Notes: generated by a model from the sequence alone, not told the origin. A stretch of DNA of 64,000 nucleotides from Verrucomicrobiia bacterium (GCA_049510215.1 JBEKZD010000011.1:28151-92150), one strand, 5' to 3'; positions 8,367-27,378 are shown, counted from the first letter of the stretch. Translations and numbers: made by a program.

Positions 8367-11300
8367 TTGCCGTTCCGGCTTCCTAACATCCGGTCTGGAA
8401 CTGATTCTATGCGGGCTGTGCAGGCACGGGACGTTCTTCACGACGTATCCAACCAACCTATGTTTATGACCGAGACAATCCTTGGGACACCGTTGCCGAT
8501 CGTGAGACGTCGGTTGAAGAATCGCGCCCCCGTTTTGCGTCTCCACGGCCCGTCGTTCAATAAAGTTCTCACTCGCGCCGGTCGTGCCACGGAACATGTT
8601 GCCGCAGCATGTGTTGCGATCCTCCTCTTCGCAACCTCCTCCGTCCAGGCCGCTGAAAGACAAGCGTTGCGCGGCCACGTGCCGAGGGCCATCGCAGACT
8701 TGAATTTGCAGCCCGTGGGCCTTCTTCCCGGCACGAACCGTTTGCATCTGGCCATTGGGTTGCCATTGCGCAACCAAGAAGCGCTCACTGCCTTGCTGCA
8801 ACAGCTTTACGACCCGGCCAGTCCCAACTACCGTCACTATCTGACGCCAGAACAGTTCACGGAAAAGTTTGGTCCGACAGAACAGGATTATCAAGCAGTC
8901 GTCGCATTCGCCAAGGCCAACGGATTTGCGGTGACGGCCACGTATCCCAATCGCGTGGTTCTTGACGTGGAAGGTACCGTCGCGGACATCGAGAGAACTC
9001 TCCATGTGACGATGCGGGTTTACCAGCATCCGACGGAAGCGCGCATGTTCTACGTGCCGGATGTCGAGCCATCGCTTGACTTGGCGGTACCAATCCTACA
9101 CATCAACGGGTTGGACAACTACGCGCTGCCGTTTCCAAAGCTTGTCCGGAAACCAGCCAGCAAGGTGGCCGTCGCGATGCCCAATGCCGGCTCGGGTCCG
9201 AGTGGGTCGTATCTGGGCTATGATTTTCGTAAGGCATATATTCCTGGGACAACATTGACTGGTACTGGTCAGAGCGTCGCACTGTTCGAATTGGACGGAT
9301 ATTACGCAGTTGACATCAGCAACTACGTGGCCCTGGCAGGATTGCCCAACGTACCGCTGGTGAATGTGCCGGTCAACGGTGGCATTGGCACTCCCGGCGT
9401 CAACGGCGGGATCGACGAGGTGTCATTGGACATTGAAATGGTGGTGGCAATGGCGCCCGGCCTTTCTCATGTTTACGTTTATGAAGGGCTGGATCCTGAT
9501 TCTGTCCTGAGTAAGATTGCCAGTGACAATCTGGCTCAACAAATAAGCTCCTCTTGGGGCTGGTCGCCGGGACCTGATTTGGTTGCCGATGGCATTTTTG
9601 CCGAGATGGCGACCCAAGGGCAGACCTTCTTCGATGCGGTTGGTGACTACGACGCATTTGCGCCGGGCACGGCGGATACCTACGCTCCAAGCACCAGCAC
9701 CAACATCACTGAGGTCGGCGGGACCACCTTGATGACGAGTGGTCCGGGCGGCGTTTGGACCAACGAAACGGTCTGGAACTGGAGAACAGCAAACCCGACG
9801 ATGGGGGAATGGGGCGGCAGCGGTGGCATCAGTACGAATTATTCGATTCCGGTCTACCAAAAAGGGATCATCATGTCTGTCAACGGCGGTTCGACAACAA
9901 AGCGCAATGTTCCCGACGTCGCCCTGACCGCCGACAATGTTTATGTGATCGCCAACAAGGGTGCGGATAACGGTATCTATGGCGGCACCAGTTGCGCGGC
10001 GCCGTTGTGGGCGGGCTTTACGGCCTTGATCAACCAGCAGGGTGCCGCCAACAGCGTTCCGCCGGTCGGCTTTCTCAACCCGGCCATCTACGCCATTGGC
10101 CCGAGCGGCAGCTACACCAACTGTTTTCACGACATCACCACCGGCAATAACACTTGGGGCGGCAGTACGAATCAGTTCTACGCCGTTTCCGGCTACGATC
10201 TCTGCACCGGTTGGGGTACGCCGAACGGCACCAACCTGATCAACGCGCTGTTGGGTGCGCCACTGGTGCCACCCTATCCCTCCCTTGTCAGTGTCGGCTC
10301 GATCGTGAGCGGGGGCAATGGCAACGGTGTGATTGATTACGACGAGTGCAATCTGCTCTACCTCCCGGTCGCGAATGTCGGCTACGGGACCGCCACCGTC
10401 GTCAACGCCACGCTGACGACCAGCACGCCCGGCGTCACGATCACCCAGCCTACCTCCACCTATTCGAACCTCGCGCCCGGCGCAATCACCACCAACAACA
10501 CGCCGTTCCAGATCAGCACCTCACTGTCATTCGTCTGCGGCACACCAATCCCGCTGTCGCTGGCGTTGTCCTACACCGGCGGCTCCAATACCAACACCAT
10601 TACCCTGCCCACCTGCCAATGCCCGACGATTCAAGTGAACGGCAGCTTGAGTGCCAGCAGCCCGACGCAGAGCGGCAGCCTCTGGCCCAGTGGCACGAAC
10701 AGTACCTGCAGTGCTGCGAAATCCTGCCCCGGGACGTATGCAGCGGGTACGGTCGCCTATCACGCTTACTCATACACGAACTCAAACAGTTCGGCAGTTT
10801 GCGTGTCCGTGACCGTCTCCGCAACTTGCGGTGATGACTACTACAGTTCCATTTTCTCGGAGGCGTATCTCGGCAATTACAATCCCGGCAGTCTCTGCAC
10901 ACACTACCTAGCCGACATGGGTGGCAACGACGGGCAGTACAGCGGCCCGGGGGTATTTAGTTACTCCTTCACCGTTCCTGCCAACACCAACTTCACTGTG
11001 GTCGTGAATGGGATGCACCATGGTTACTATTGCTCCAGTTACACCCTCACCGTCGCCGGCCTGCTCTGTCCATTGGATGGTGGTGGCGCGTGTGCCGGAG
11101 TCTCGGCGAATTTCAGCGGAACACCCACGAATGGTGTCGCTCCATTGGCCGTGACTTTCACCGACACCTCGACCGGCACAATCACGAACCGATTCTGGGA
11201 TTTCGGCGACAGCACCACCACCAACACGACCGCGACCAACGTCCAGCACACGTACAACGCGGCGGGCACCAATACCGTGACGTTGATCGTCAGCGGGCCA

Positions 11301-11732
11301 CTTGGCGACAGCACCAACACACGGCCCAACTATGTGACCGTGCTGACCACGTATCAGGGTTGGCAGATGCAGTACTTCGGCTGCATCGGCTGTCTGCAGG
11401 CGGCAGAAACTGCTGACCCGGATGGTGACGGCCAGAACAACCTCGCTGAGTTCCTTGCGGGCACCGACCCGACCAACAGCGCCTCGGCATTCCATATCAT
11501 TTCGATTGTGCAGGAGGACGACGACCTTCGCGTCGGTTGGCTGGCGGGTGGGGGCAGAACCAATGTCGTGCAGGCCGTGAACGATGCCGGCAGCGGTTTT
11601 ACGAACAGCTTCAGCGACCTTAGCCCGCTCTTCATCATTCCCGGTGCAGGCGATGTGCTCACCAACTACCTCGACGTTGGCGGCGCGACCAACGCGCCCT
11701 CCCGCTTCTACCGCGTACGGCTCGTGCCGTAG
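8367..11732 (+). CDS. secreted multidomain peptidase: pro-kumamolisin activation domain + S53 sedolisin + PKD domain + TSP3-like motif + shared C-terminal domain
   Basis: propeptide LRGHVPRAIADL...PASPNYRHYLTPEQF; sedolisin serine GGTSCAAPLWAG; PKD WDFGDSTTTNT; tail ...TNYLDVGGATNAPSRFYRVRLVP; start uncertain (TTG/ATG candidates before signal peptide AAACVAILLFATSSVQA). Confidence 0.8.
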   Translation: MPFRLPNIRSGTDSMRAVQARDVLHDVSNQPMFMTETILGTPLPIVRRRLKNRAPVLRLHGPSFNKVLTRAGRATEHVAAACVAILLFATSSVQAAERQALRGHVPRAIADLNLQPVGLLPGTNRLHLAIGLPLRNQEALTALLQQLYDPASPNYRHYLTPEQFTEKFGPTEQDYQAVVAFAKANGFAVTATYPNRVVLDVEGTVADIERTLHVTMRVYQHPTEARMFYVPDVEPSLDLAVPILHINGLDNYALPFPKLVRKPASKVAVAMPNAGSGPSGSYLGYDFRKAYIPGTTLTGTGQSVALFELDGYYAVDISNYVALAGLPNVPLVNVPVNGGIGTPGVNGGIDEVSLDIEMVVAMAPGLSHVYVYEGLDPDSVLSKIASDNLAQQISSSWGWSPGPDLVADGIFAEMATQGQTFFDAVGDYDAFAPGTADTYAPSTSTNITEVGGTTLMTSGPGGVWTNETVWNWRTANPTMGEWGGSGGISTNYSIPVYQKGIIMSVNGGSTTKRNVPDVALTADNVYVIANKGADNGIYGGTSCAAPLWAGFTALINQQGAANSVPPVGFLNPAIYAIGPSGSYTNCFHDITTGNNTWGGSTNQFYAVSGYDLCTGWGTPNGTNLINALLGAPLVPPYPSLVSVGSIVSGGNGNGVIDYDECNLLYLPVANVGYGTATVVNATLTTSTPGVTITQPTSTYSNLAPGAITTNNTPFQISTSLSFVCGTPIPLSLALSYTGGSNTNTITLPTCQCPTIQVNGSLSASSPTQSGSLWPSGTNSTCSAAKSCPGTYAAGTVAYHAYSYTNSNSSAVCVSVTVSATCGDDYYSSIFSEAYLGNYNPGSLCTHYLADMGGNDGQYSGPGVFSYSFTVPANTNFTVVVNGMHHGYYCSSYTLTVAGLLCPLDGGGACAGVSANFSGTPTNGVAPLAVTFTDTSTGTITNRFWDFGDSTTTNTTATNVQHTYNAAGTNTVTLIVSGPLGDSTNTRPNYVTVLTTYQGWQMQYFGCIGCLQAAETADPDGDGQNNLAEFLAGTDPTNSASAFHIISIVQEDDDLRVGWLAGGGRTNVVQAVNDAGSGFTNSFSDLSPLFIIPGAGDVLTNYLDVGGATNAPSRFYRVRLVP

Positions 11733-12004
11733 ATGATCAGCGCGGCGCCTGCACTGCTAGCCGAGGTGTATTGCCCCTGCATCCTTCTCATCCGCCCTAA
11801 CAAAACCCAAATCTGCCACGCTACAATCCGACAGCAAAACGCTAATCCCGGCGTTGCGCGATTTTCTGTCTTCTGGTATACTGAATCCCACTTGGAGAAA
11901 GCCAAGAAGCGCGCAGCCGCAGAAGGAGAAACTTGTCGCAAAATGCCGCGGGCGCCGCGAGGACGCCGTGGGGTTCTGACGACAATCACTTTGTGGGAAG
12001 ACAA

Positions 12005-14482
12005 ATGAAAACGGGAAATCTCCTGAAGTCCTACCTTGTTTTTGTAGTGACTCTCAGTCTGGTTGCTCTACATCCATCTCTCACTGCCGCTCAGGAAAAG
12101 TTGTCCCGGTCCCCGGTCAACCCGGCATTTGAAGAGTATCTTGCCAAACGCCAACAAGGGGTGGTTGCCCTTCAGCAAAATGAAATGTCGCGCGGGTACA
12201 TCCCGCCGCCCATGCAATTGCCCGCGCCCAGTGGCGCCGTGCCCGCGCTGGTGGCCGGCCCGTTAACACTGCCGTCTTCTTATGACCTGCGCATCCAGGG
12301 CAAGCTGACGCCAATTCGGAACCAAGACGGCTGCGGTGATTGCTGGGCCTTTGCCACCTACTCCTCGCTGGAATCCTGTCTGTTGACCAACGAGACCTGG
12401 GATTTTTCGGAGAACAATCTCAATGTCTCCAGTGGATTCGATATCGGCTGTTGCATCGGTGGCAACAGTTACATGTCCGCCGCCTACTTGGCGCGCTGGA
12501 GCGGCCCGGTCAGTCAGTCGGATGACCCCGAGACCTGGACCGGCTGCACGACCGTGTCCGGCGTCGCCGCCCGAAAACACATTCAGGAGGTTTTGTTTCT
12601 TCCATTGCGCACCAGCGCGACGGACAACAACACCATCAAGCAAGCCGTAATGACCTACGGAGCGGTGTACACCGCCATCTTGGTCACGGGCGGAGCTGGG
12701 TATCTGCCGCCGTATTCGGACGCCTACTACAATGCCAGCACATACGCCTACTATTACAACGGCACCGCCGCCACCGACCATGCCATTGCCATTGTCGGCT
12801 GGGATGACAGCTTTGCCGCCAGCAATTTCAGCACGGTTCCACCGGGCAATGGCGCCTTCATCATCCGGAACAGTTGGGGCACCGCTTGGGGCCAGAGCGG
12901 CTACTTCTACATGTCGTACTACGACACCTGGGTCGGCAGGGAAGAGAACGCGGTGTTCGTGAGTCCCGATTCCACAGACAAGTACTCGCGCAACTACCAG
13001 TACGATCCGCTCGGCTGGGTGAGTTCGTTCGGTACTGGCTCGTCCAGCAATTATTGGGGAGCAAACATATTTACCGCGGTGGGCGCGGAGCAGTTGCGGG
13101 CGGTGAGTTTCTATACGCCAGTGGTGAATTCCACCTACCAGATTTATGTGTATACCAACGCAACATCCGGTCCAACCAGCGGCACCTTGGCCAGCAGCAC
13201 CAGTGGAACCAACGCCCTACCCGGTTACTTCACGATTGCACTGCCCACGGTGGTGAATCTGACAGCGAGCCAGAAATTCTCAGTTGTGGTGAAATTCACG
13301 ACCCCCGGCTACAACTGGCCCGTCCCGATCGAGTACGCTTATTCTGGATACAGCAGCGGCGCGACCGCTGCGGCAGGACAAAGTTATTACAGTTCCTCGG
13401 GCTCCTCTTGGACGGACTTCACATCGTATAATTCCACCATGAACGCCTGCATCAAGGCGTTCACTTCCGTCAACGACGTCAGCGTCACCCTGACGGCAGC
13501 GCCGAACCCGGTCCTGTGCGGCAGCAATCTCACCTACAGCATCGCCGTCAGCAACCTCGGTCCGGCGTGGGCGACCAGTGTCACCGTTACCGACCCCGTA
13601 CCGGCCAACGTGACCTTCAACTCGGCCACGCCCTCCCAAGGCGCCTGCACCAATCAAGGCGGTAGAATCATCTGTGGCCTCGGCACGCTCGACAGCAATG
13701 CGACTGCCACCGTCTCCATCAGCGTCACGCCGACGCTCGCGGGCGCGTTGACCAACACGGTCACCGTCACGGCGAGCGAGCCTGACACAAATTCTGGCAA
13801 CAACGCCGCAACCAACATCACCACCGTCACCGCCCTGCCGCCGACGATCACGACGTCGAGTCCATTGCCGACGGGCACGGTTGGTGTGGTCTACAGCCAG
13901 GCATTGATGGCGAGCGGTGGCACGACGCCGTACAGTTGGTCGGTGGTGTCGAACAGTTTGCCGGCTGGTTTGACGTTGGTGGCCAGCAGTGGTTCGATCA
14001 CCGGCGCGCCGACGACGGCGACGACCGCCAGTTTCACCGTGCGCGTGACGGATGCCGGCAGCCAAATCGCCAACAAAGACTTCAGTCTGACGATCAATCT
14101 GCCGGCATTTCAGGCGTGGCAGGTCCAATACTTCGGCTGTACCAATTGTCCGCAGGCGGCCCCGGACGCGGACCCGTTGGGCAAGGGAATGAGCAACACC
14201 AACCAGTTCCTGCTGGGCCTGAACCCGACCAACGCGGCTTCGGTGTTCCGGATCACCTCCTTGGCGCAACAGGGCAACGGAACCAATGTGATTACCTGGT
14301 CCACTGCCGGCGTGCGCACCAACGTGGTGCAAGGCGCGGCTGGGGACGGTAGCGGCGGTTACAGCAACAACTTCACCGACATCAGCGGCGGCATCATCAT
14401 CCCCATCGTCGGGGATACGATCACCAACTATACGGATCAGAACGGAACGAACGAGTACTACCGGATCCGGTTGGGCCCGTAG
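12005..14482 (+). CDS. secreted papain-like (C1) cysteine peptidase + DUF11-like repeat + putative Ig (He_PIG) domain + shared C-terminal domain
   Basis: signal peptide MKTGNLLKSYLVFVVTLSLVA; C1 catalytic triad context QDGCGDCWAF, HAIAIVGWDD, NSWGTAWGQSGYFYMSY; tail NNFTDIS...TNYTDQNGTNEYYRIRLGP. Confidence 0.8.
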   Translation: MKTGNLLKSYLVFVVTLSLVALHPSLTAAQEKLSRSPVNPAFEEYLAKRQQGVVALQQNEMSRGYIPPPMQLPAPSGAVPALVAGPLTLPSSYDLRIQGKLTPIRNQDGCGDCWAFATYSSLESCLLTNETWDFSENNLNVSSGFDIGCCIGGNSYMSAAYLARWSGPVSQSDDPETWTGCTTVSGVAARKHIQEVLFLPLRTSATDNNTIKQAVMTYGAVYTAILVTGGAGYLPPYSDAYYNASTYAYYYNGTAATDHAIAIVGWDDSFAASNFSTVPPGNGAFIIRNSWGTAWGQSGYFYMSYYDTWVGREENAVFVSPDSTDKYSRNYQYDPLGWVSSFGTGSSSNYWGANIFTAVGAEQLRAVSFYTPVVNSTYQIYVYTNATSGPTSGTLASSTSGTNALPGYFTIALPTVVNLTASQKFSVVVKFTTPGYNWPVPIEYAYSGYSSGATAAAGQSYYSSSGSSWTDFTSYNSTMNACIKAFTSVNDVSVTLTAAPNPVLCGSNLTYSIAVSNLGPAWATSVTVTDPVPANVTFNSATPSQGACTNQGGRIICGLGTLDSNATATVSISVTPTLAGALTNTVTVTASEPDTNSGNNAATNITTVTALPPTITTSSPLPTGTVGVVYSQALMASGGTTPYSWSVVSNSLPAGLTLVASSGSITGAPTTATTASFTVRVTDAGSQIANKDFSLTINLPAFQAWQVQYFGCTNCPQAAPDADPLGKGMSNTNQFLLGLNPTNAASVFRITSLAQQGNGTNVITWSTAGVRTNVVQGAAGDGSGGYSNNFTDISGGIIIPIVGDTITNYTDQNGTNEYYRIRLGP

Positions 14483-14727
14483 TCGGTCTTGCCCGCCAAC
14501 GACTCTTGGGCCGGCTTGCCCGGCTGTCCCGGTCTTGCTACACTGCGCAGCATGAATCGGCTGCTGCTTGCCCGATGTGGCGGGTTCGGGGAAGACAAAG
14601 GGTATCGGGGTCATGTCTAATTATTCTTCATTCTGACCTGGCGCGCTAACACAACCGGCAATCCTCGTTGATGGAAATCCGCTCATCTGGTTTCATCGGG
14701 GCCGATTCCGGAATGCTTGCGGGGGAC

Positions 14728-14751
14728 TGAACGGGCGGGACGCCCACGCTA
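14728..14751. repeat. single-arm copy of palindromic element (gaacgggcgggacgcccacgctac)
   Basis: matches arm of elements at 1438-1510 and 4661-4728. Confidence 0.5.
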
Positions 14752-14882
14752 CTGTAGCTCAGTCGCTGCTCGCTCCATGAACTGCGGGCCCGAAGAGAGG
14801 CCGAGGGTCGAGGTTCGGCGAAGCGGTCGCCCGGAAACGGCAGAGACTTGCCCTGTGAAACGGGGTGAACGTCCGTTCGCGG

Positions 14883-16103
14883 TTAACTCTTCCCCAGGCC
14901 GAATGCGTCGTGGATGGCACGGGCGGCTTTGTCGGCGTCGGCCAGTTTGATAATCACCGAGATCTTGATCTCGCTGGTGGAGATCATGTCGATGTTAACG
15001 CCGTTGGCGGCCAGCGTCTCAAATATCTTCGCGGCAACGCCGGGATGCGAGCGCATACCGATGCCGACGACCGAGAGTTTGGCAACGGGTTGGGCTTGAG
15101 GTGTCTGCTGGGCGCCCGCGATTTTATTGAGGACAGGAGCCAGAGCTTTGGCGGCGCGGTCTGATTCATTCGCAGGCACAGTGAAAGAGATGTCGGTCCA
15201 ACCGTGAGCGCTTATGTTTTGTATGATGACATCGATGTTAATATTCGCATCGGCAACAGCCCTGAAGATTTGCGCGGCCACACCTGGCCGATCAGGCACT
15301 TCGCGTATGGTGACTTTGGCCTGGTTCTTGTCAACCGCGACGCCGCGGATGACCACATCTTCCATTCTTGCGGTTTCTTCTTTCACGATTGTCCCCGGGT
15401 TGTCGTTAAAACTGCTGCGCACTTCAAACACGACGCCGAATTTCTTGGCAAACTCGACCGAGCGCGCCTGCATCACCTTCGAGCCGAGCGCGGCCAACTC
15501 CAGCATCTCGTCGTAGCTGATTTCCGCGAGCTTGCGCGCGTTGGGCACGATGCGCGGATCGGAAGTATAAACGCCGTCAACGTCGGTGTAAATCTGGCAC
15601 AGATCGGCCTTGATGGCGGCGGCGATGGCAATCGCAGTCAGATCGCTGCCGCCGCGTCCGAGCGTGGTAATCTGACCGTCAGGCGTCTCGCCTTGAAAGC
15701 CCGCGATAGTTACGATGTTTCCGTTGTCGAGAAACTCGTGGACCCGCTTCGGCGTGATATTGGCGATCTTGGCCTTCGTGTGCAGGCCATCGGTGACGAT
15801 GCCGGCCTGCGCGCCGGTCAACGACACGGCCTTGGCGCCAAGCCCGTGCAGCGCCATTGCCAACAAAGCGATGGTGGTCTGTTCGCCCGTCGCGAGTAAC
15901 ACGTCCATCTCGCGTTCGTTCGGTTCGGGATGGACCTCCCTGGCCAGCTTGATGAGCGAGTCGGTCGCGCCGCTCATGGCGGAGACGACGGCGACGACCT
16001 TGTTGCCCTGCTGTTGCGTCGCCAGCACGCGGCGCGCGACGTTCTTGATCCGCTCGGGATTGCCGACTGATGTCCCGCCGTATTTTTGGACAATGACCGC
16101 CAT
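14883..16103 (-). CDS. lysC: aspartate kinase
   Basis: MAVIVQKYGGTSVGNPERIKNVARRV...VVAVVSAMSGATD; ACT domains at C-terminus. Confidence 0.9.
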   Translation of the reverse strand: MAVIVQKYGGTSVGNPERIKNVARRVLATQQQGNKVVAVVSAMSGATDSLIKLAREVHPEPNEREMDVLLATGEQTTIALLAMALHGLGAKAVSLTGAQAGIVTDGLHTKAKIANITPKRVHEFLDNGNIVTIAGFQGETPDGQITTLGRGGSDLTAIAIAAAIKADLCQIYTDVDGVYTSDPRIVPNARKLAEISYDEMLELAALGSKVMQARSVEFAKKFGVVFEVRSSFNDNPGTIVKEETARMEDVVIRGVAVDKNQAKVTIREVPDRPGVAAQIFRAVADANINIDVIIQNISAHGWTDISFTVPANESDRAAKALAPVLNKIAGAQQTPQAQPVAKLSVVGIGMRSHPGVAAKIFETLAANGVNIDMISTSEIKISVIIKLADADKAARAIHDAFGLGKS

Positions 16104-16199
16104 GGTGTTTCTTCCACCCTAAATCCGAATATCGAAATCCGAAATCCGAAACAAATTCGAATGAACGGAATTCATCCGGAAATCCACCTTCCCGTCTTT

Positions 16200-16311: not shown

Positions 16312-16471
16312 AGCCCAAGTAGCTTTCAGGATGGGTTCCAAAACCTAAAATCGTTACTGGACGTCCTTTCATCTTTGCCCTTTTTGCAGCTTCGTGTTTG
16401 CCTCGGATTTCGTATTTCGGGTTTACGCTCCAATTACCTTGAGCGCTGCCTCAGTGTTCGCCAGGTGCTCA

Positions 16472-17845
16472 CTACTCAAAACTCTCCACGCGGATAACGA
16501 TGGTCTTGTCTTTCACGATGGGCAGTCGGTCGATCTCAGCCACCGCGTCGCGCACGGCGCGGTCTTTCGCTGTGTGCAGCATGAAGATGAGCGGAATCCC
16601 GCCCGCGGCGGGACTCGGCGGCTGGCCCCGACACTCGTGTCGGGGCTGGCCGGGCTTTGGGTCCGGCGCTTCACGCTGCAGCACGGATGCAATGCTGATG
16701 TCGGTATCGCCCAGCACCTTCGATACCTTGGCGATGACGCCCGAGCGATCCTCGACGGTGAGCCGCAGATAGTAGCGCGATTCGACATCATCAATGGTTC
16801 GCAAGCGCGCGTGCAGTCTGTGCGAGACAAACGCCGGCACGCGCTGAATGCTTCCGAACTTCAGATTGAGCGCCGCATCGGCCAGATCAGCAATCACCGC
16901 GCTCGATGTCGCATCCGCGCCGGCGCCGCGACCGTAGAACATCGTATCACCAACGACATCGCCACGCACGACCACGCCATTGAACACGCCGCTGACACTG
17001 GCGAGGACGTGATTGCGCGGGATCAGCGTTGGATGCACGCGGACTTCGACGGGGGCGGAGTCGGAAGTGTCTGCACTCTTGATGATCATCAGCATCTTGA
17101 CCACGTAGCCAAGCTCGCGGGCAATCTCAATATCTTGCCGGGTGACGTGGCGGATTCCTTCGACGTAGGTATTTTCAAAACCCGTCCAGAAACCGTGCGC
17201 CAGCGACGCGAGGATGGTCGCCTTGTGGGCCGAATCGCCGCCGTCGACGTCCAGCGACGGATCAGCTTCGGCGTAGCCCAGTTTTTGCGCCTCGGCCAGC
17301 ACTTCGTCAAAATCTTTTCCTTCGGCGGTCATGCGCGAGAGGATGTAATTGCAGGTGCCGTTGACGATGCCGTAGATGAGCGGGAAACGGTTGGCGACGA
17401 AACCTTCGCGCAAGGCCTTGATGATCGGGATGCCGCCGCAGACGCTGGCTTCGTAGAAGACGTTGGTGGAATTCTTCGCTGCGGCGGCAAAGATTTCCTC
17501 GCCATGATGAGCGAGGAGTGCCTTGTTGGCAGTCACGACGACCTTGCCGCGAGCGAGTGCATCGAGAATGATAGTTTTCGCGAAGCCGGTTCCGCCCACG
17601 AGTTCGATGACGACGTGCACGTCGGGGTCGCGGAGCACGGTTTGTGCGTCGGGAGTCAAAGTGTTCGCAGGGATCGGCAGGTTTTTCAGCTTGGATTCAT
17701 CCTTGTCGCAAACCCATTTGAGATTGATGCGCATGCCAAGCCGGTCGGCAATGAGGTCCGCGTTGCGAGTGAGATTCTTCACCACCCCGCCGCCTACGAT
17801 GCCGGCGCCGATCAAACCGATGTTTAGTTGTGACGCTTTCTCCAT
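16472..17845 (-). CDS. hom: homoserine dehydrogenase
   Basis: N-terminal NAD-binding LIGAGIVGGGVV, catalytic domain, C-terminal ACT domain; 457 aa. Confidence 0.9.
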   Translation of the reverse strand: MEKASQLNIGLIGAGIVGGGVVKNLTRNADLIADRLGMRINLKWVCDKDESKLKNLPIPANTLTPDAQTVLRDPDVHVVIELVGGTGFAKTIILDALARGKVVVTANKALLAHHGEEIFAAAAKNSTNVFYEASVCGGIPIIKALREGFVANRFPLIYGIVNGTCNYILSRMTAEGKDFDEVLAEAQKLGYAEADPSLDVDGGDSAHKATILASLAHGFWTGFENTYVEGIRHVTRQDIEIARELGYVVKMLMIIKSADTSDSAPVEVRVHPTLIPRNHVLASVSGVFNGVVVRGDVVGDTMFYGRGAGADATSSAVIADLADAALNLKFGSIQRVPAFVSHRLHARLRTIDDVESRYYLRLTVEDRSGVIAKVSKVLGDTDISIASVLQREAPDPKPGQPRHECRGQPPSPAAGGIPLIFMLHTAKDRAVRDAVAEIDRLPIVKDKTIVIRVESFE

Positions 17846-18367: not shown

Positions 18368-18449
18368 AGCGGGTAGATCCTTTCGTTAATGCAGTTTTGC
18401 TGAAGAAATACTACGCACGGCCAGCGGCAGAGCGCAAGCGCATTTTACT

Positions 18450-19634: not shown

Positions 19635-19916
19635 GCGGCGCATGCTACCAGCGAATCCGGCAAAAAGCCAAGAAAAGCTCGAAAAACTTCTTGCGCTTCG
19701 GAAAGGGTGTGTCAATCATCCGGGCAGATGCGTAGTGACGTTCACAGCAGGAAAATCAGGATGGTTCCTGATGGACGGGCTGATTTGGTCAAGGGTGAGA
19801 AGTGCGACGGGTGCAGGGAACCGGGAGCAACGGAGTTCCTGCCGTCGGTGATCGCAGAGCGCGTTGCGGCCAAATCCAAACAAAATTCAGACGAACGCCG
19901 GAAGGGAGCCTGAGCG

Positions 19917-20678
19917 ATGCCTCTCAAAACAGTGCGATACGGCTGGGTGCCCGACCTGCCTGATCAACGCGATCATCTTTACGCCGCGCCGGTGGAAACA
20001 CTGGCTGCGCTTCCGCCGCGCGCGGACCTGCGTCCGCAATGTCCGCCCGTGTACGACCAGGGTCAGTTGGGCAGTTGCACGGCGAACGCGATTGCTGCGG
20101 CCATCGAGTTTGATCGTCTGAAGCAAACACTGTCCGATTTCATGCCGTCACGGTTGTTCATCTACTACAACGAGCGCGCGATGGAGCACACGGTGAATTC
20201 CGACAGCGGCGCGCAGATCCGCGACGGCATCAAGAGCGTTGGAAAACAGGGCGATTGTCCCGAACCAGAGTGGCCGTACGTCATTGCGAAATTCAGGACG
20301 GAGCCGCCGGCACGATGTTACCGCGACGCGGTCACGCACGCGGCGGTGTTGTATCAGCGGCTCACGCCCATCGCCAATCAACTCAAGGGCTGTCTGGCGT
20401 CCGGTTATCCATTCGTATTTGGGTTCACGGTGTACGAAAGCTTCGAGAGTGCGCAAGTCGCCAAGACCGGCCACGTCGGGATGCCCAAGTCCAACGAGCA
20501 AGTCGTAGGCGGCCACGCCGTCGTGGCGGTCGGCTACGACGAGGCGAAACAGTGGTTCCTCATCCGCAACTCGTGGGGCGCGCGCTGGGGCCTGAAAGGT
20601 TATTTCACCATGCCCTACGCGTACCTGACCGATCGCAATCTCGCGGATGATTTCTGGACGATTCGCGTGGTGGAATGA
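19917..20678 (+). CDS. papain-like (C1) cysteine peptidase without signal peptide
   Basis: QGQLGSCTANA (Cys), GGHAVVAVGYDE (His), IRNSWGARWGLKGYF (Asn/Trp); no N-terminal signal peptide. Confidence 0.7.
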   Translation: MPLKTVRYGWVPDLPDQRDHLYAAPVETLAALPPRADLRPQCPPVYDQGQLGSCTANAIAAAIEFDRLKQTLSDFMPSRLFIYYNERAMEHTVNSDSGAQIRDGIKSVGKQGDCPEPEWPYVIAKFRTEPPARCYRDAVTHAAVLYQRLTPIANQLKGCLASGYPFVFGFTVYESFESAQVAKTGHVGMPKSNEQVVGGHAVVAVGYDEAKQWFLIRNSWGARWGLKGYFTMPYAYLTDRNLADDFWTIRVVE

Positions 20679-20709
20679 AACCGGTGGACAGCACCGGGGA
20701 GAAACTGCG

Positions 20710-21042
20710 ATGAGCCTTCGTGATCTGAGGCCGTGTCGTTTGCGGACGCCGCGAGCGCTGGCCGTGTGCCTGATCGCCGGTGTGTTAACTGTCGGTTGTC
20801 GGACGATTCGTCCCGAAAACGTCGAGGCGTTCTCGACAGGCGTGTCTGGCGCTCGTGCCCAAACGCTGCTGGCATTTCAGGGAGTCACGGACCTGACCAG
20901 CCCGGCGATCATTGACTATGCTGCCTCCCGGCCGACGTTGAGCGACGCCAACTTCTTTGTGGTTCTGGACCCGAGTCCGTCGCAGCATGGGAGCAGGTTT
21001 TCTCGACGCTGGAGAAGTACAGCCAACATCTGGCGCTGCTGA
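20710..21042 (+). CDS. putative lipoprotein (possibly 5' part of a frameshifted gene continuing in 21087-21644)
   Basis: MSLRDLRPCRLRTPRALAVCLIAGVLTVGC lipobox; protein-like sequence continues in another frame from about 20916 with no ATG/GTG start. Confidence 0.35.
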   Translation: MSLRDLRPCRLRTPRALAVCLIAGVLTVGCRTIRPENVEAFSTGVSGARAQTLLAFQGVTDLTSPAIIDYAASRPTLSDANFFVVLDPSPSQHGSRFSRRWRSTANIWRC

Positions 21043-21086
21043 CCTCGCGCGATCTGACCAAGGAATTCAAGGATTCCGCAGTCGAG

Positions 21087-21644
21087 TTGGCTCAGCAAGT
21101 TCAAGACACCGGCAAACAACTCCAGAACGCACATTTGATCGAGCAGGCACCGGAGGTATCGGCATCGATCGCCACGGGGCTGACGAAGATCGGGGATTTG
21201 TTGCTGAAAGCCAAGGCCCAGTCGGAAGCTCGAGTCATCGTCCAGCAAGCTGATCCCACGATTGGGAAGGTCTTTGCGGAAATGGCCGAAGTCGTCGGTG
21301 CCAATCGGACCACTGGCATCCGTGGGACAGTCTTTGAGCATTGGGAGCAAATTAAAGGCAGGACCAAGGTCGACTTCGTGAAGGCCGTCGCCGAACACGA
21401 TGAGGCGCGACGGCGCAACCTCGCGATGCAGTACGCCCACGAGATGAACCAGCAACAGGCTCAAGATCTGGTGTTGGCCTCATTGCGCAGGTCATTTCTG
21501 GCGCTGGCGGACGCGCATCATGCGCTGGCAAATGGAGACGAGGTTGGCGTCGGCGCCGCCATCGCGATTGTTAGTGACGAGGTGCGCGACACGCGCAGCC
21601 TCTACGACAAGTTCAAGGCTGCCACGAAGGACGACAAGAAATAA
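21087..21644 (+). CDS. hypothetical protein (TTG start; possibly 3' part of frameshifted gene with 20710-21042)
   Basis: 185-aa helical ORF; in-frame coding-like sequence extends upstream to 20916 without a start codon. Confidence 0.4.
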   Translation: MAQQVQDTGKQLQNAHLIEQAPEVSASIATGLTKIGDLLLKAKAQSEARVIVQQADPTIGKVFAEMAEVVGANRTTGIRGTVFEHWEQIKGRTKVDFVKAVAEHDEARRRNLAMQYAHEMNQQQAQDLVLASLRRSFLALADAHHALANGDEVGVGAAIAIVSDEVRDTRSLYDKFKAATKDDKK

Positions 21645-21671
21645 TTCAAACCCACACGCTCGGAGGGCGCT

Positions 21672-22016
21672 ATGAATGACGATCTGAAAGCGTTACACAG
21701 CCTGTTGCTGGCTCAACATCGAGCTCTGTCAGACAAACTGGGCCGGGAGACGGATCCCGACAAAGCGGAGGCGATTCTAACCGAGATGCAAGAGATCCTT
21801 CACCGGATCGATCTCGTGCAAGGTCTCTTGTTCCGCCGAAGCACCAAGGGGTTGACCAATGCGCTGGCCGATGTCCAATCGGCGGACACAGAGCTGACCA
21901 AGGCAATCCGACACATCAAGGACGTGGCGAGTTTTGTGAAAGCGGTGGCCGATTTTCTGAAATACGTGGACGAAGCCATCGACATCGCGAAGACGCTGGC
22001 GCCGCTTGCCCCCTGA
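21672..22016 (+). CDS. hypothetical alpha-helical protein
   Basis: 114-aa ORF with GGAGGG 7 nt upstream of ATG. Confidence 0.5.
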   Translation: MNDDLKALHSLLLAQHRALSDKLGRETDPDKAEAILTEMQEILHRIDLVQGLLFRRSTKGLTNALADVQSADTELTKAIRHIKDVASFVKAVADFLKYVDEAIDIAKTLAPLAP

Positions 22017-22054
22017 ATCGGTTGATGTAATGGAAGCTGAAGCCGTCCGTGCGG

Positions 22055-22192
22055 ATTCTCGGCGCAGGCGTTGCGTAGGCTCTTGACCTCCGTGCCTTTC
22101 AACTCGATGCCCGGTTCATACGTCTCGTTTATGAAGTAATCGCGGCTGGACTTGTGGTTGTGAATCGCCGACGGCATTGCATTCACCAGCAT
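22055..22192 (-). pseudogene. fragment duplicating the 5' about 135 nt of smpB
   Basis: encodes [32 protein letters not shown]; DNA about 85% identical to 24850-24985 (smpB start); then diverges. Confidence 0.65.
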
Positions 22193-22264
22193 AGCCGAAA
22201 TCTGTCCACAGAGCGGTTATATCGAACCGGTACGAAAAACAAGCTTTGATAGAGGCGGAACTAA

Positions 22265-24445
22265 GTGATTGATCTATCGTCTTACTTCGGAGAAGTTCTC
22301 ACCGTGAGCGACGCGAAACAATCACCGGTAATCTCTGGTCCCGTGGACGGGCTGGCGCCGGTGGGTAATTCTGCTGCGCCTCCAGCCGAATTGGAGTTGT
22401 TCGTCGCGAGCGTAGTGGCGCTGTTTTTGGAAGTCGCCTTTATTCGCTGGGTGCCAGCCTACGAGCGGGTGCTGGGGTACTTTACGAACTTCGTGCTCAT
22501 CGCGGTGTTTCTTGGCCTGGGGCTGGGAGCGATGCTGGCACGGCGGCGGCGGGAGTTGATCCGGTACCAACCGATGCTCGTGCTGGGATTGGTCGTGGTG
22601 GCGGTCCTGTTTCAACGCTACGTGAAAACCTTCGGCGCGCGCGGCGACGTTTTCTACACGGATTGGTCGCGGCAGGCTAAGGTGTCGTTGCTGTTGGTGG
22701 AATGCCTGGCTTTTTTCTTCCTGCTGATCGCGGTCGTGTTCGTGCCGCTGGGACAGAAGATCGGTAAGGGCTTGGCCGCAGTTTCGTCGCCGCTGAAAGC
22801 GTACACTCTCAACATTCTTGGCAGCCTGGCGGGGGTGGTGGCGTTCACACTCATGTCGGTTCTCGAACTCACCCCGTGGTGGTGGTTTCTGGCGGCAGTG
22901 GCGGGGTTGTTGTGGTTGGCGCGGCGCGAGCGGCGCATGTGGCAGGCCAACGCGTTGGTCAGTGCGCTGACAGTGGCGATCGTGTGGTGGGCAGGCACGG
23001 ATTACATCTGGTCGCCCTATAACAAATTGACGGTGCGTCCCATCGAGGCGCCATCTGGTGACGAGGGGCAGCCGGTCAAGCCGCGGGACATTCCCGCGCT
23101 CGCGCGAACGCAGGGATTCAGTTTAGCGGTCAATGACGACTGGTTCCAAGTTGCCAGGAACTTGTCCCCGTCCAGTGTGCAGACGCATCCAGAAAACACG
23201 AATGACCTGGCCCATTACGATTTGCCTTACAACATTGGGCGCCACTACGACGACGTGCTGGTGGTGGGCGCGGGGACGGGGAACGATGTGGCAGCCGCAC
23301 TGCGCCACGGGGCACGCCATGTGGACGCGGTGGAGATCGATCCGGCCATTGCGCAACTCGGCAGAATCGCGCATCCCGAGGCGCCGTACCGTGATCCCCG
23401 AGTCCGGGTTATTGTGGACGATGCGCGCTCGTATTTCAACAAGACCGACCGCAAGTACGATCTCATTGTCTTTGGCCTTCTGGACTCGCACCGCTTGTTC
23501 TCCGGCATGTCTTCGGTTCGGCTCGATTCGTTTGTGTACACGGTGGAGAGCTTCCGCGAGGCCGGCAGCCTGCTGAACAGCAACGGCTTGTTGTGCGTCC
23601 AGCACGGGCTGGGAATTGATTACATGCCCCCTCGGCTCTACCTGATGCTCGCCGTAGCCTCTGGGATACGGCCCCTCATGATCGGCACTGAAGCCATGCC
23701 AACTTTTCTGGCTGGACCGGGCCTTCTGGAATACAAAGATCGGCCCCCGCCAGTAGAGGTGCCGATGGTGGCGCTCGCGACTGACGACTGGCCCTTCTTT
23801 TACATGGAAGGCCCGCAAATGCCGCCGGAGTATCGCACGGCATTGGAGGCAATGTTGCTTCTTGCGCTGCTCTCGCTGCTGGTCTGCTCCGAGGGCCAAA
23901 TGCGGGGCCTCGACCGCCACTCCTTCCACTTCTTTTTTCTGGGAGCCGCGTTTCTGCTGATCGAGACGGTAAGCGTCACACGGTTCGCACTCCTGTTCGG
24001 GTCAACCTGGATCGTCAACTCGATCGTGTTCGCGGCCATTTTGCTGGTGGTGCTGCTGGCCAATCTCTGCACAATCCGGGTCGCGCGGATTCACACTGCG
24101 GCTCTGTACCTGCTGCTGGCCGGTGCCATTTTCGTGAATTTCGAATTCCCTCTGCACTGCCTTCTGTCCGGGCCCTTGGGTCTGCGACTGCTCGCCGCAG
24201 TGGTGTTGATGGGGGCGCCGATTTTCTTCGCCGCCCTGATCTTTGCCCGTTCCTTCAAGGAAACGACGACGCCCGAGCTGGCGTTTGCTTCAAATCTTCT
24301 GGGCGCCGTGGTGGGGGGACTGACCGAATACAGTTCCCTAGTAATCGGCTTTCGGTACCAACTGGCGATCGCCTTGGGAATGTACGCGCTCTCTTACTTG
24401 GCGCTGATCGGGCAGTCTAGAAGGCGGGTTCCCGCCACCGTGTGA
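22265..24445 (+). CDS. polytopic membrane protein with internal spermidine-synthase-like (class I MTase fold) domain
   Basis: multiple TM helices N- and C-terminally; central VLVVGAGTGNDVAAALRHGARHVDAVEIDPAIAQLG...DLIVFGLLDSH. Confidence 0.65.
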   Translation: MIDLSSYFGEVLTVSDAKQSPVISGPVDGLAPVGNSAAPPAELELFVASVVALFLEVAFIRWVPAYERVLGYFTNFVLIAVFLGLGLGAMLARRRRELIRYQPMLVLGLVVVAVLFQRYVKTFGARGDVFYTDWSRQAKVSLLLVECLAFFFLLIAVVFVPLGQKIGKGLAAVSSPLKAYTLNILGSLAGVVAFTLMSVLELTPWWWFLAAVAGLLWLARRERRMWQANALVSALTVAIVWWAGTDYIWSPYNKLTVRPIEAPSGDEGQPVKPRDIPALARTQGFSLAVNDDWFQVARNLSPSSVQTHPENTNDLAHYDLPYNIGRHYDDVLVVGAGTGNDVAAALRHGARHVDAVEIDPAIAQLGRIAHPEAPYRDPRVRVIVDDARSYFNKTDRKYDLIVFGLLDSHRLFSGMSSVRLDSFVYTVESFREAGSLLNSNGLLCVQHGLGIDYMPPRLYLMLAVASGIRPLMIGTEAMPTFLAGPGLLEYKDRPPPVEVPMVALATDDWPFFYMEGPQMPPEYRTALEAMLLLALLSLLVCSEGQMRGLDRHSFHFFFLGAAFLLIETVSVTRFALLFGSTWIVNSIVFAAILLVVLLANLCTIRVARIHTAALYLLLAGAIFVNFEFPLHCLLSGPLGLRLLAAVVLMGAPIFFAALIFARSFKETTTPELAFASNLLGAVVGGLTEYSSLVIGFRYQLAIALGMYALSYLALIGQSRRRVPATV

Positions 24446-24530
24446 CGCGGGCAACGGTCAAATTTGGAGTCACCTCCCCGGGAATTCAGTTAGCTGCGGC
24501 GCTACTTGCGAGGGTCGAAGATGCCCTCGG

Positions 24531-24985
24531 TCAATCTTTCCCGACCTTGTCCTCGTCGAGGATTTGGTAGCCAATCTTGCCTTCGCTGGTTTCCTTCAGC
24601 GCGACATCCGCATGATCCATGCGTGGATCGGCCTGTATCAACGGTCGATGCCCTCGGGCGAGTTGGCGCACTCGCCGCGAGACGATGGACTTCCTTTTTT
24701 GTGAAGCAGGAGCCGATGAGGGCGCAGGGGATCGACGTTGCAGCGGTTGCCGAATTCGTAGGCAGTGATGTGGGCGTTGTAAAGCCAGACCTGGCGGCGC
24801 TCGACGCGGGCAAAGGCATCGTCGATGGAGGCGCGGGCGTCGCGGAGGCTCTTGACTTTCGTGCCCTTGAGTTCGATGCCTGCCTCGTACGTCTCGTTGA
24901 TGAAGTAATCGCGGCGGGCTTTGTGGTTGTGAATCATCGGCGCCATCGCCCTCAGTATAACGGGCGGCCCGGCATGTCTTTGCAA
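24531..24985 (-). pseudogene. smpB: SsrA-binding protein SmpB, reading frame broken at an A6 homopolymer (24693-24698, T6 on + strand)
   Basis: frame 1 [35 protein letters not shown]...[13 protein letters not shown] then premature stop; SmpB-like C-terminus resumes in another frame; one extra A would restore about 157-aa protein. Confidence 0.7.
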
Positions 24986-25188
24986 CGGTTTTCGCTTGAC
25001 TGGAAGCCAGTAAACTGCGAGCCTTCGCCGCGCTGGTTGGGAATAGGCTAATCAGGCTCAAGTTGCGACGAGAGTTCGGCGAAGAAAATGAAGCAGCGCC
25101 TTGAACGCTGGTCGGCATGCGGTCGATTCCTTTCGCTTACCGCACTCTGCCGCTATACCCAAACGCACGCCAAAATGAGAAGCCAGCC

Positions 25189-27378
25189 ATGAACGCCACT
25201 CGCATTGCAGTCATCGGAGTCATTGCCCTGAGTTTGGCAGTAGCAACAGCACGGGCGCAGTACACCGCCGACTACCAGACCAACACCATCAGCGGCGTGA
25301 CCAACGACTGGGCGGATGACTACCTCGTCGGATACACCAATTTTGCCGATGTGTTGCTGATCCAAAACAGCGGCGTGCTGACCAACCATGACGGCTATTT
25401 GGGCTATGACTCCAGCAGCAGCAACAATAGCGTGCTGGTCACCGGCCCCGGCTCGGTCTGGAGCAACACTTACGCCCTGTACGTCGGCTACTCTGGCGCG
25501 GGCAACAGCTTGGTGATCAGCAATGGCGGCCAGGTGGTCAACTACTACCGCTACGGCTGCATGGGCTACAACTTCAGCAGCAGCAACAACAGCGTGCTGG
25601 TCACCGGTGCCGGCTCGGTCTGGAGCGCCAGCGAGGAGTTGGACGTCGGCTACTCTGGCGCGGGCAACAGCTTGGTGATCAGCGATGGCGGCCTAGTGGT
25701 GTCCTTACTTGGTGGGCACATGGGCTACGACTCCAGCAGCAGTAGCAACAGCGTGCTGGTCACCGGTGCCGGCTCGGTCTGGAGCGCCAGCGAGGAGTTG
25801 GATGTCGGCTACTGGGGCGGGGGCAACAGCCTGGTGATCAGCAATGGCGGCCTAGTGGTCAACGACATTGGCTATGTGGGCTCTTGGGGCAGCAGCAGCA
25901 ACAGCGTGCTGGTCACCGGCCCCGGCTCGGTCTGGACCAACTGCGAGGTGGACGTCGGCTACTCTGGCGCGGGCAACAGCCTGGTGATCAGCGATGGCGG
26001 CCAGGTGCTCACCGGCCCCAGCTGCGACTACTACGGCGACGGCTACATGGGCTACGACTCCAGCAGCACCAACAACAGCGTGCTGGTCACGGGCCCGGGC
26101 TCGGTCTGGAGCAACCGCTGCGACTTGGTCGTCGGCTACTCTGGCGCGGGCAACAGCCTGCTGATCAGCAACGGCGGCCAAGTGGTCAACGGCGACGGCT
26201 GGGTGGGCTACGACTCCAGCAGCAGCAACAACATCGTGCTGGTCACCGGCCCCGGCTCGGTCTGGAACAACGGCAACGACTTGGTCGTCGGCTACTGGGG
26301 CGCGGGCAACAGCCTGCTGATCAGCAACGGCGGCCAAGTGGTCAACGGCGACGGCTGGGTGGGCTATGACTCCAGCAGCACCAACAACATCGTGCTGGTC
26401 ACCGGCCCCGGCTCGGTCTGGAATAATCTCACCACCCTGTACGTCGGCTACGGCGGCAGCAGCAACCTGTTGGCGATCACCGACGGCTCGGTATTGGCCA
26501 GCAATCTGTTTATCAGTTACTCCGACCCTGACTACGGTGTCGCTTTGACCAATCTGGTTCGGGTGGACGGTGGCAGCTTGGTTGTCACCAACGCCGCTGG
26601 CAACGGCAGTCTGGTGGTCGGACGGGCGGGCGGCGAGGCGGAGTTTATCCTCAACGGCGGCACGGTGATGGTGGATGCGCTCGTTGCCACCAACGGTGCC
26701 AACAGCGTGGTCACCTTCAACGGCGGGCTGCTTAAGAGTCGTTGCACCGCCGTCACCAATGACGCAGCGTTCGCAGTGGGCAACGGCGTCAGCACGGCCG
26801 AGTTCCATCTGCTGGGCGGCGTTCATTCGTTTGCGAATGGCTTGCGCATCCGTGCGAACGCGTTGCTGTCCGGCTGCGGCACGATCAACGGCAGCGTGCT
26901 GGTGGACGCCGGCGGCATCGTGCTTGCGGATTGCGGCGGCACGCTCACCTTCACGGGCATCCTTACCAACAACGACACGATGCGGGCGGTCAACGGCAGC
27001 GTCCTCGAATTCTGCGGACCTGTAGTCAACAACGGGATCATTGACATCATGGACGGCACGACCAACTTCCATTCCTCTTTCATCAACAACGGCACTGTCG
27101 TGGACGCCTCCTACTTCATAGTGGTCGGCATCACGCGGCAAGCCGACGACATCAACATCACGTGGACAACCGTCGGCGGTGGCAGCTACGTTGTTCAAGT
27201 CACTGCGGGTGCCGCCGACGGCAGCTACACCAACAACTTCACAGACCTCAGCCCCGCAATTGCCATTCCAAGCTCAGGCCTCGGCACGACGAACTACCTC
27301 GACGTTGGCGGCGCAACGAACATGCCCGCTCGCTACTACCGCATCCGCCTTTCGTCGCCCATGCCTCCAGACCCGTGA
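25189..27378 (+). CDS. secreted autotransporter-associated beta-strand-repeat protein with shared C-terminal domain
   Basis: signal peptide MNATRIAVIGVIALSLAVATARA; about 7 tandem 54-aa repeats (SVLVTGPGSVWSN..VGYSGAGNSLVISNGGQVVN); tail NNFTDLS...TNYLDVGGATNMPARYYRIRLSS. Confidence 0.75.
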   Translation: MNATRIAVIGVIALSLAVATARAQYTADYQTNTISGVTNDWADDYLVGYTNFADVLLIQNSGVLTNHDGYLGYDSSSSNNSVLVTGPGSVWSNTYALYVGYSGAGNSLVISNGGQVVNYYRYGCMGYNFSSSNNSVLVTGAGSVWSASEELDVGYSGAGNSLVISDGGLVVSLLGGHMGYDSSSSSNSVLVTGAGSVWSASEELDVGYWGGGNSLVISNGGLVVNDIGYVGSWGSSSNSVLVTGPGSVWTNCEVDVGYSGAGNSLVISDGGQVLTGPSCDYYGDGYMGYDSSSTNNSVLVTGPGSVWSNRCDLVVGYSGAGNSLLISNGGQVVNGDGWVGYDSSSSNNIVLVTGPGSVWNNGNDLVVGYWGAGNSLLISNGGQVVNGDGWVGYDSSSTNNIVLVTGPGSVWNNLTTLYVGYGGSSNLLAITDGSVLASNLFISYSDPDYGVALTNLVRVDGGSLVVTNAAGNGSLVVGRAGGEAEFILNGGTVMVDALVATNGANSVVTFNGGLLKSRCTAVTNDAAFAVGNGVSTAEFHLLGGVHSFANGLRIRANALLSGCGTINGSVLVDAGGIVLADCGGTLTFTGILTNNDTMRAVNGSVLEFCGPVVNNGIIDIMDGTTNFHSSFINNGTVVDASYFIVVGITRQADDINITWTTVGGGSYVVQVTAGAADGSYTNNFTDLSPAIAIPSSGLGTTNYLDVGGATNMPARYYRIRLSSPMPPDP
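25400..26440 (+). repeat. near-identical tandem DNA repeats, period about 160 bp, about 6.5 copies, inside CDS
   Basis: recurring ccagcagcagcaacaacagcgtgctggtcaccggccccggctcggtctggagc blocks at about 25413, 25575, 25735, 25890, 26055, 26215, 26375. Confidence 0.8.

Follow-up and report, generated by a model that had tools for sequence, protein, structure and literature searches.

A predicted fibronectin-III-type domain at the extreme C terminus of diverse Sec-exported proteins of Verrucomicrobiia, a candidate address or retention tag

INTRODUCTION

A stretch of DNA of 64,000 nucleotides from a Verrucomicrobiia bacterium (GCA_049510215.1, JBEKZD010000011.1:28151-92150; this whole stretch is called the window, and positions are counted from its first letter) encodes three secreted proteins, here p1, p2 and p3, that are otherwise unrelated and end in the same C-terminal module. 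What such a shared ending might be doing on two peptidases of different families and a repeat protein is the question that this locus raises. An earlier reading of the sequence alone (the original prediction) had taken the module, called the tail below, for a sorting or anchoring signal. The analysis reported here describes the tail as a portable terminal domain with a predicted fibronectin-III-type (FN3) fold, found on a broad range of exported proteins of Verrucomicrobiia, and weighs whether it could serve these proteins as a common address or retention tag.

RESULTS

Three otherwise unrelated proteins share a homologous tail

The three open reading frames (ORFs) in question were present as described earlier.

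8367-11732, + strand: p1, secreted S53 (pro-kumamolisin-type) peptidase with PKD and the terminal module, assigned by domain matches
12005-14482, + strand: p2, secreted papain-like C1 peptidase with Lectin_like, DUF11 and He_PIG and the terminal module
25189-27378, + strand: p3, secreted beta-helix-type protein with seven T5SS/PEP-CTERM-associated repeats (TIGR04393; T5SS, type V secretion system)

A Pro-kumamolisin activation domain, PKD and the serine motif GTSxAAP were recognized in p1, the start of which is uncertain (candidate ATG codons at 8409, 8460 or 8466); a signal-peptide-like stretch (...VAAACVAILLFATSSVQA) lies upstream of its pro-domain. The domains matched in p2 were Peptidase_C1, Lectin_like, DUF11 and He_PIG, its signal peptide is MKTGNLLKSYLVFVVTLSLVALHPSLTAAQ, and its ATG at 12005 is backed by an identical protein of 825 amino acids (P0268) from JGI metagenome 3300009548. 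The signal peptide of p3 is MNATRIAVIGVIALSLAVATARA, with an alternative start at an upstream ATG (25117), and p3 has neither an autotransporter barrel nor a PEP-CTERM signal. These Sec-type signal peptides were all judged by eye from the sequence.

Comparison of the C termini by BLASTP confirmed the shared module. The tails of p1 and p2 were 47% identical over 131 amino acids (E = 2e-30), those of p1 and p3 44% identical over 100 amino acids (E = 2e-19) and those of p2 and p3 48% identical over 83 amino acids (E = 5e-12), and the homology of the three is far beyond chance. No fourth copy was found when a hidden Markov model (HMM) of the tail was run against the six-frame translation of the window. 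The window encodes one more papain-like C1 peptidase (19917-20678, + strand; 253 amino acids), which lacks both the FN3 tail and an obvious signal peptide. As to the single domain of ~110 amino acids that had been proposed, the shared terminal core stood; the unit itself fell into two parts, a core of ~83 residues (81 to 85) and a prelude of 43 amino acids, the latter present in the two peptidases only.

11481-11729, + strand: p1 core, FN3-like terminal domain of 83 amino acids, ending ...RFYRVRLVP directly before the stop codon (HMM independent E value [i-E], 6.5e-39)
14237-14479, + strand: p2 core, FN3-like terminal domain of 81 amino acids, ending ...EYYRIRLGP directly before the stop codon (i-E, 8e-30)
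27106-27360, + strand: p3 core, FN3-like terminal domain without the TSP3 prelude (i-E, 2.5e-38)
11352-11480, + strand: p1 prelude, WQMQYFGCIGCLQAAETADPDGDGQNNLAEFLAGTDPTN, with a CxxC pair, one TSP3/EF-hand-like calcium loop and then a helix (i-E, 7e-28)
14108-14236, + strand: p2 prelude, a variant with a degenerate calcium loop (i-E, 1e-25)

In p3, ~5 extra residues (...RIRLSSPMPPDP; 27361-27375) stand between the core and the stop codon. The consensus of the core, from 122 genomic copies, reads ASxFRIxSxxxxGxDxxVTWxTxGGxTNAVQ...TNFxD...TNYLDxGGATNxPxRYYRVRLVP, and that of the prelude WQxQYFGCxxCxQAA..DPDGDG..N..EF..GTDPTN (also G.DPTN); the junction PTN(S/A)AS ahead of the core is highly conserved. 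Judged from its sequence, the prelude is a known motif, the bacterial TSP3 calcium-binding repeat (PF18884), which matched 27 of 46 aligned tails (best E value, 2e-11). In the window itself, the p1 prelude matched PF18884 at an E value of 0.037 only, under the cut-off, the loop of p2 is degenerate and p3 has no loop. When a profile of the tail alignment was compared with solved structures, the sole match was weak (E ~1e-3) and was to the EF-hand loop of calmodulin. The p2 loop reads DPLGKGMSNTNQF in place of DPDGDG..N..EF, and since the same variant recurs in P0057, an unrelated PKD protein, it represents a subtype and not a one-off decay; to go by its residues, this subtype may not bind calcium. 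Several close p2 orthologues have no prelude and carry the core joined straight to the lectin-like domain, which, together with p3, argues that the core is an autonomous unit.

The core is an unnamed family with a predicted FN3 fold

AlphaFold2 modelled the whole module from a 46-sequence alignment with a pLDDT of 91.4 and a pTM of 0.78, and the core of p3 alone with a pLDDT of 85 and a pTM of 0.73. The predicted fold of the core is of the FN3 type, a seven-stranded, two-sheet sandwich that can be superposed on solved FN3 domains, with structural likeness to the Fn3-like modules of glycoside hydrolases and cellulosomal enzymes (3mpc, 24% identity; 5g56, 26% identity; and GH3 C-terminal domains). 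Foldseek returned no match in the PDB at E <= 1e-3. The core was unnamed, as had been claimed: 46 tails yielded no match to it at E <= 1 in Pfam-A or NCBIfam, and at this threshold neither Pfam fn3 (PF00041) nor dockerin (PF00404), SLH (PF00395), PPC (PF04151), CHU_C or Por_Secre_tail was among the families matched. The fn3 matches of carriers, where present, fall in their N-terminal parts. Nor did profile scans of the same tails and inspection of motifs connect the tail with PEP-CTERM, the C-terminal domain (CTD) of the type IX secretion system (T9SS) or LPXTG, in agreement with the original prediction; there was no PF07589 match, the tails end ...R[FY]YR[VI]RL.P without a hydrophobic helix, and an LPXTG motif with hydrophobic segment and charged tail was absent from the three tails and the consensus. 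Full-text literature searches, which included the end motif, turned up no published description of the domain. On the evidence of the models, the core is an unnamed, divergent FN3-type family and not a new kind of structure. With the fn3 modules of exoenzymes (PF00041, Fn3-like) it shares the fold, the size, a conserved strand-B Trp and a place on extracellular glycoside hydrolases and lyases; it differs from them in having no PF00041 match, in its strictly terminal place, in the near-invariance of the end motif R[FY]YR[VI]RL.P and in its frequent pairing with a TSP3 calcium loop.

One named family, the Amuc_1099 pilus-like family (NF042425), was considered and rejected, because its matches come from TSP3 repeats only. 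On the tails these matches reached 18 to 42 bits, against a full-length cut-off of 50, and covered profile positions ~95 to 170 of 321; weak MtsD matches were likewise confined to the TSP3 prelude. What the tail has in common with the TSP3 repeats of the MtsD and Amuc_1099 families (PF18884) is the prelude, in which DPDGDG..N..E(F/Y)..GTDPTN is the repeat, but the likeness ends there. P0410, a p3 homologue of 1002 amino acids, bears the NCBI name 'Amuc_1099 family pilus-like system protein' at 50.7 bits against the cut-off of 50; its NF042425 match spans two TSP3 repeats only (profile positions 95 to 152 of 321), and from this alignment the name looks like an over-annotation.

The layout of the carriers recalls T9SS, and the tail could be a divergent T9SS CTD, of type A (TIGR04183/PF18962) or type B (TIGR04131/PF13585), handled by that system. 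In both cases a genome encodes many carriers, Sec-exported hydrolases and adhesins that are unrelated to each other and named by their N-terminal parts, and each of them has a small beta-sandwich of ~80 to 90 residues at its extreme C terminus; the 83-residue terminal sandwich on signal-peptide-bearing cargo is also of the size of that family (~70 to 100 residues). Against this, the 46 tails matched none of the four T9SS CTD models in Pfam-A and NCBIfam at E <= 1, T9SS CTDs were absent from the top 60 structural matches of both models, the best fold match is FN3, the host belongs to Verrucomicrobiia, and rare internal or tandem copies exist. No T9SS part was seen among the annotated genes of the 64-kb window, and T9SS is regarded as confined to the Bacteroidota/FCB group. 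We consider a divergent T9SS CTD very improbable.

The tail family is widespread in Verrucomicrobiia

A profile search over 1.84 billion protein cluster representatives gave 31,484 matches at E <= 1e-3, 8,135 at E <= 1e-10 and 1,004 at E <= 1e-30. The core was present in 101 of 147 top representatives inspected, the other 46 being giant multi-TSP3 proteins without it, so that the match counts overstate the family and 31,484 is not its size. The giant proteins (P0122, P0128, P0132, P0241 and others) are 1,500 to 5,500 amino acids long, carry 10 to 30 repeats of the TSP3 type without an FN3 tail and make up most of the entries in part of the match list. In GTDB species-representative genomes, confirmed stretches numbered more than 510, and the best 76 loci (20 assemblies, 825 kb) are the basis of the neighbourhood, position and identity counts given below. 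The 20 assemblies are labelled Verrucomicrobiia, Verrucomicrobiae or Verrucomicrobiota, with the exception of one 'Binatia' metagenome-assembled genome (MAG). One MAG contributed 13 of the best 80 loci, and at least 2 carriers lay within 12 kb in 29 of 76 loci, as do p1 and p2 in the window. Viral contigs were uninformative, showing essentially the TSP3 prelude only plus one weak core match. As far as could be seen within the data surveyed, the tail family is specific to Verrucomicrobiia, of soil and peat.

The adjacency of p1 and p2, and the occurrence of gene conversion between such neighbours, could suggest a local artefact in which three tails of one genome were recently duplicated, and the nearest neighbour of a tail indeed came from the same genome in 34 of 122 cases (8.8 expected). 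However, the tails of the window are only 44 to 48% identical to each other, and the domain is not confined to three paralogues of one genome but occurs in thousands of metagenome representatives and in the GTDB stretches, of which the best loci alone come from 20 assemblies. These profile matches led us to reject the artefact, to which we give practically no credence.

Carriers are exported proteins of many kinds that end with the core

The proposal of an extreme C-terminal module on otherwise unrelated Sec-exported proteins was upheld by counts of position, cargo and signal peptides. Carriers ended 0 to 2 residues past the core in 97 of 101 top representatives and in 112 of 118 carrier ORFs of the 76 loci (~95%), and their last eight residues were nearly always [FY]YR[VI]RL.P. 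Internal or tandem copies were rare (4 of 118 genomic ORFs, ~3 to 5% of copies) and were commoner at the top of the score-sorted list of representatives, which favours multi-copy proteins; in no carrier was a PEP-CTERM signal seen after the core. By a crude test, 79 of 92 N-terminally complete carriers had a signal-peptide-like N terminus, whereas among control ORFs of these loci the figure was 101 of 265. Forty-seven Pfam families were matched in 44 full-length carriers, and the cargo comprised PKD/Ig/fn3 arrays, pectate lyases, pectinesterase, Pel9A-like beta-helix, LamG, apiosidase, RCC1 and PATR, as well as calcineurin-like and Exo_endo_phos phosphoesterases, peptidases, nucleases and adhesin-like repeat proteins. 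Much of it is pectinolytic or glycolytic. In the database sources, carriers were named for their N-terminal parts only.

These counts bear on the main rival to a tag, namely, that the tail is a passive or substrate-directed FN3 cap, a spacer or a weak binder of the plant cell wall or humic matrix, spread by domain shuffling and without a sorting role. The resemblance of the fold to Fn3-like modules of glycoside hydrolases and cellulosomal enzymes, the largely pectinolytic or glycolytic cargo and the existence of internal and tandem copies would all fit such a cap. A spacer, however, needs neither placement at the last residue, as in ~95% of carriers, nor a near-invariant end motif that runs to the final proline, and peptidases, phosphoesterases, nucleases and adhesin-like repeat proteins have no common substrate. 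With the further points given in the two sections that follow, we regard a passive or matrix-binding module as a serious contender that is nonetheless rather unlikely.

The tail alternates with known anchors and is exchanged between genes

Of the 120 homologues that best matched the p3 passenger, 86 ended in the core and at least 7 in PEP-CTERM, and none had an autotransporter barrel. The replacement of PEP-CTERM by the tail on one passenger family speaks against a passive module. PEP-CTERM of the exosortase system (PF07589, TIGR02595) thus occupies the same slot on homologous T5SS/PEP-CTERM-associated repeat proteins, and both endings occur in this genome; PEP-CTERM is, however, ~25 residues long and made up of a PEP motif, a transmembrane helix and a basic tail, whereas the FN3 tail is an 83-residue folded soluble domain. 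The PEP-CTERM protein that had been noted in the window at 27661-28386 was borne out (PF07589, 22.3 bits versus a cut-off of 20.7); it lies directly downstream of p3 (27460/27661-28386, + strand).

Approximately 14 of the 120 p3-passenger homologues ended in other small beta domains with ...RFYRLR-type ends. Homologues with other small terminal domains were P0408, P0448, P0454, P0459, P0466, P0473, P0480 and P0497, and P0420, P0424, P0463 and P0465, with the end motifs ...RFYRLR/..RFFRIRWP or ...QAFYRTVQP. In profile comparison (hhalign probability, 67%; E = 7e-6), the ..RFYRLR.. group is probably related to the core; for the ..QAFYRTVQP group, no relation to the core could be demonstrated. 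These endings hint that terminal domains with a final 'FYR' may make up a larger superfamily.

In other phyla, the peptidase of p2 has distant homologues that bear SLH, dockerin or CHU_C (T9SS type B) modules or plain Ig-like domains. As the tail, PEP-CTERM, SLH, dockerin and CHU_C thus stand on homologous passengers, the tail fills the slot of recognized sorting or retention modules. Dockerin and SLH are, like the tail, conserved terminal modules on varied secreted enzymes, and dockerin also has EF-hand-like calcium loops; unlike the FN3 sandwich they are helical, and the tails match neither PF00404 nor PF00395.

In orthologues, tails and passengers differed in their degree of identity. In p3 orthologues the passenger was 75 to 85% identical and the tail 100% identical over 90 amino acids, a degree of conservation that is again at odds with a passive module. 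In p2 orthologues the passenger was 81 to 89% identical and the tail only 42 to 45% identical to that of p2. In P0270, a p2 orthologue (88% identical) with the same architecture, the terminal module shares 91% identity with that of p1 but only 52% with that of p2 (segments compared, 11352-11729 and 14108-14479), and the breakpoint lies just after WQVQYFGCTNCPQAA. This pattern points to a swap of modules, or to gene conversion, between neighbouring genes. From P0270 and the tails of the p2 and p3 orthologues it follows that tail variants have been exchanged between genes, and apparently these variants can stand in for one another. Concerted evolution within genomes was rejected as a general explanation, as mean tail identity was 49.6% within genomes versus 47.8% between genomes and the excess of same-genome nearest neighbours was only modest.

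No partner gene recurs near carriers

When the 501 ORFs of the 76 loci that are not carriers were clustered all against all, no family was present in more than 9 loci, a result that would also fit a passive module. No processing enzyme of the kind suggested in the original prediction was identified. That prediction had also suggested a connection of the tail with one of the window's machineries resembling a type II secretion system (T2SS) or type IV pili (T4P). The window does contain a T2SS-type cluster at 51102-62096 (+ strand; GspE with an MshEN domain, GspF, a GspH-like protein, GspK, a PilM/PilN-like fusion and a secretin at 59718-62096) and a short cassette at 37141-41204 (- strand; a 360-amino-acid GspE-like ATPase, two GspF paralogues and a pseudopilin). 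The connection found no support in gene neighbourhoods, however: when the ten T2SS/T4P-like proteins of the window and its PEP-CTERM protein were compared by BLASTP with the 76 loci, a single GspE-like ORF was found near a carrier, in one locus. Directly downstream of the T2SS secretin gene lies a gene for an Rce1-like/CPBP intramembrane protease (62322-63365, + strand; PF02517, E = 1.7e-15). Rce1-like/CPBP proteases form the superfamily of myxosortase, which processes MYXO-CTERM proteins. The FN3 tail, having no transmembrane helix, is no obvious substrate of such a protease; PEP-CTERM-type proteins might be.

A third reading in rank, after the tag and the passive module, is that the tail is a cleaved C-terminal pro-domain, similar to PPC or to the Fn3 domain of Pel3/PelI, that aids folding, solubility or passage through T2SS and is then clipped outside the cell. 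In Pel3/PelI, the Fn3 domain contains a loop that is key to recognition by T2SS, and once secretion has taken place the domain is removed (PMC7949064). Two of the three carriers in the window are peptidases, the PTN(S/A)AS junction before the core is highly conserved, and a T2SS-type gene cluster is at hand, all of which would suit a pro-domain. Most carriers are not peptidases, however, PPC was not matched at E <= 1, and carriers in other genomes show no linkage with T2SS genes. Pel3/PelI Fn3 (PDB 4u49, 3b4n) is alike in being found on secreted enzymes, namely, pectinases, and in the presence of a T2SS-type cluster, here in the window itself; it differs in being N-terminal and restricted to a few gamma-proteobacterial enzymes, the tail being C-terminal and present on hundreds or more proteins. 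At an identity of only 9 to 14%, the likeness of the two is no greater than that of the tail to many other FN3 domains. A cleaved pro-domain therefore seems improbable to us.

Other features of the window

The genes around p1, p2 and p3 have housekeeping functions (2-isopropylmalate/homocitrate synthase-like, aspartate kinase, homoserine dehydrogenase, aminotransferase and the omega subunit of RNA polymerase). A long ORF without family match at 16394-17827 (+ strand) overlies the real gene at that place, which encodes homoserine dehydrogenase (16472-17845, - strand). The ORF next after the PEP-CTERM protein (28882-29802, + strand) has a prepilin-type N-terminal methylation motif at residues 90 to 116, from which its true start is probably further downstream. 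A restriction-modification pair, consisting of an XhoI-family endonuclease (PF04555, E = 2e-90) and an N6/N4 DNA methylase, is encoded at 43473-45151 (- strand).

DISCUSSION

We consider the chances to be about even that the tail is a shared address or retention tag for outer-membrane passage, surface display or both. This reading is put forward because the tails are homologous, lie at the terminus, sit on proteins with signal peptides and on a broad range of cargo, alternate with PEP-CTERM and are exchanged as cassettes. As regards the sorting or anchoring signal proposed at the outset, its terminal position, its varied cargo and its alternation with PEP-CTERM have been upheld; the role itself we infer from where the tail sits, from how varied its cargo is and from its alternation with known anchors, as we do its recognition by one common partner. 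The tail would in this scheme be a portable FN3 cassette of soil and peat Verrucomicrobiia, placed at the extreme C terminus and often following one TSP3/EF-hand-like calcium unit. Cargo would first be exported by Sec and then fold in the periplasm, where one shared partner would recognize the folded tail domain and either take the cargo across the outer membrane or retain it on the outer membrane or cell surface. Parallels for such a tag would be the T9SS CTD, the Fn3 domain that acts as secretion determinant in the T2SS substrates Pel3/PelI, or dockerin and SLH modules.

Several observations weigh against the tag. In bacterial exoenzymes, FN3 modules are common as parts that are passive or that bind substrate. 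The internal and tandem copies of the core stay well conserved, which is needless for a purely terminal, cleaved signal. No gene family recurred next to carriers, and the window's T2SS/T4P-like and PEP-CTERM proteins had next to no counterparts in the 76 loci. As the tails are barely more alike within a genome than between genomes, there is no strong sign of coevolution with a genome-specific receptor.

A more specific form of the tag, which we put forward tentatively and hold to be unlikely, is that the tail is the cargo signal of an undescribed Verrucomicrobial sorting route, a counterpart of the T9SS CTD that runs parallel to PEP-CTERM/exosortase and is read by a dedicated partner. This partner could be a specialized T2SS component or an outer-membrane receptor or attachment enzyme, and dozens of exoenzymes and adhesins per cell would be carried across or onto the outer membrane by such a route.

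Verrucomicrobiia are major polysaccharide degraders of soil and peat, and the export and display of their exoenzymes are poorly understood. The tail joins two known kinds, FN3 exoenzyme modules and conserved C-terminal cargo domains, and is very abundant. An HMM of the 83-residue core is a sequence handle that predicts a large part of the secreted and surface proteome of Verrucomicrobiia, and the set of cargo that the tail defines can be used in a search for the matching machinery by phylogenetic profiling; the tail is a good lead on the sorting of the exoproteome. Should the tail be a passive FN3 cap, the family model would still be worthwhile, as it prevents carriers from being named for their N-terminal parts only or misnamed as 'Amuc_1099 family'. 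If the tail is a true sorting or anchoring signal, it would represent a new class of signal in a phylum in which only PEP-CTERM is known, and would also serve as a portable tag with which proteins could be secreted or displayed on the surface.

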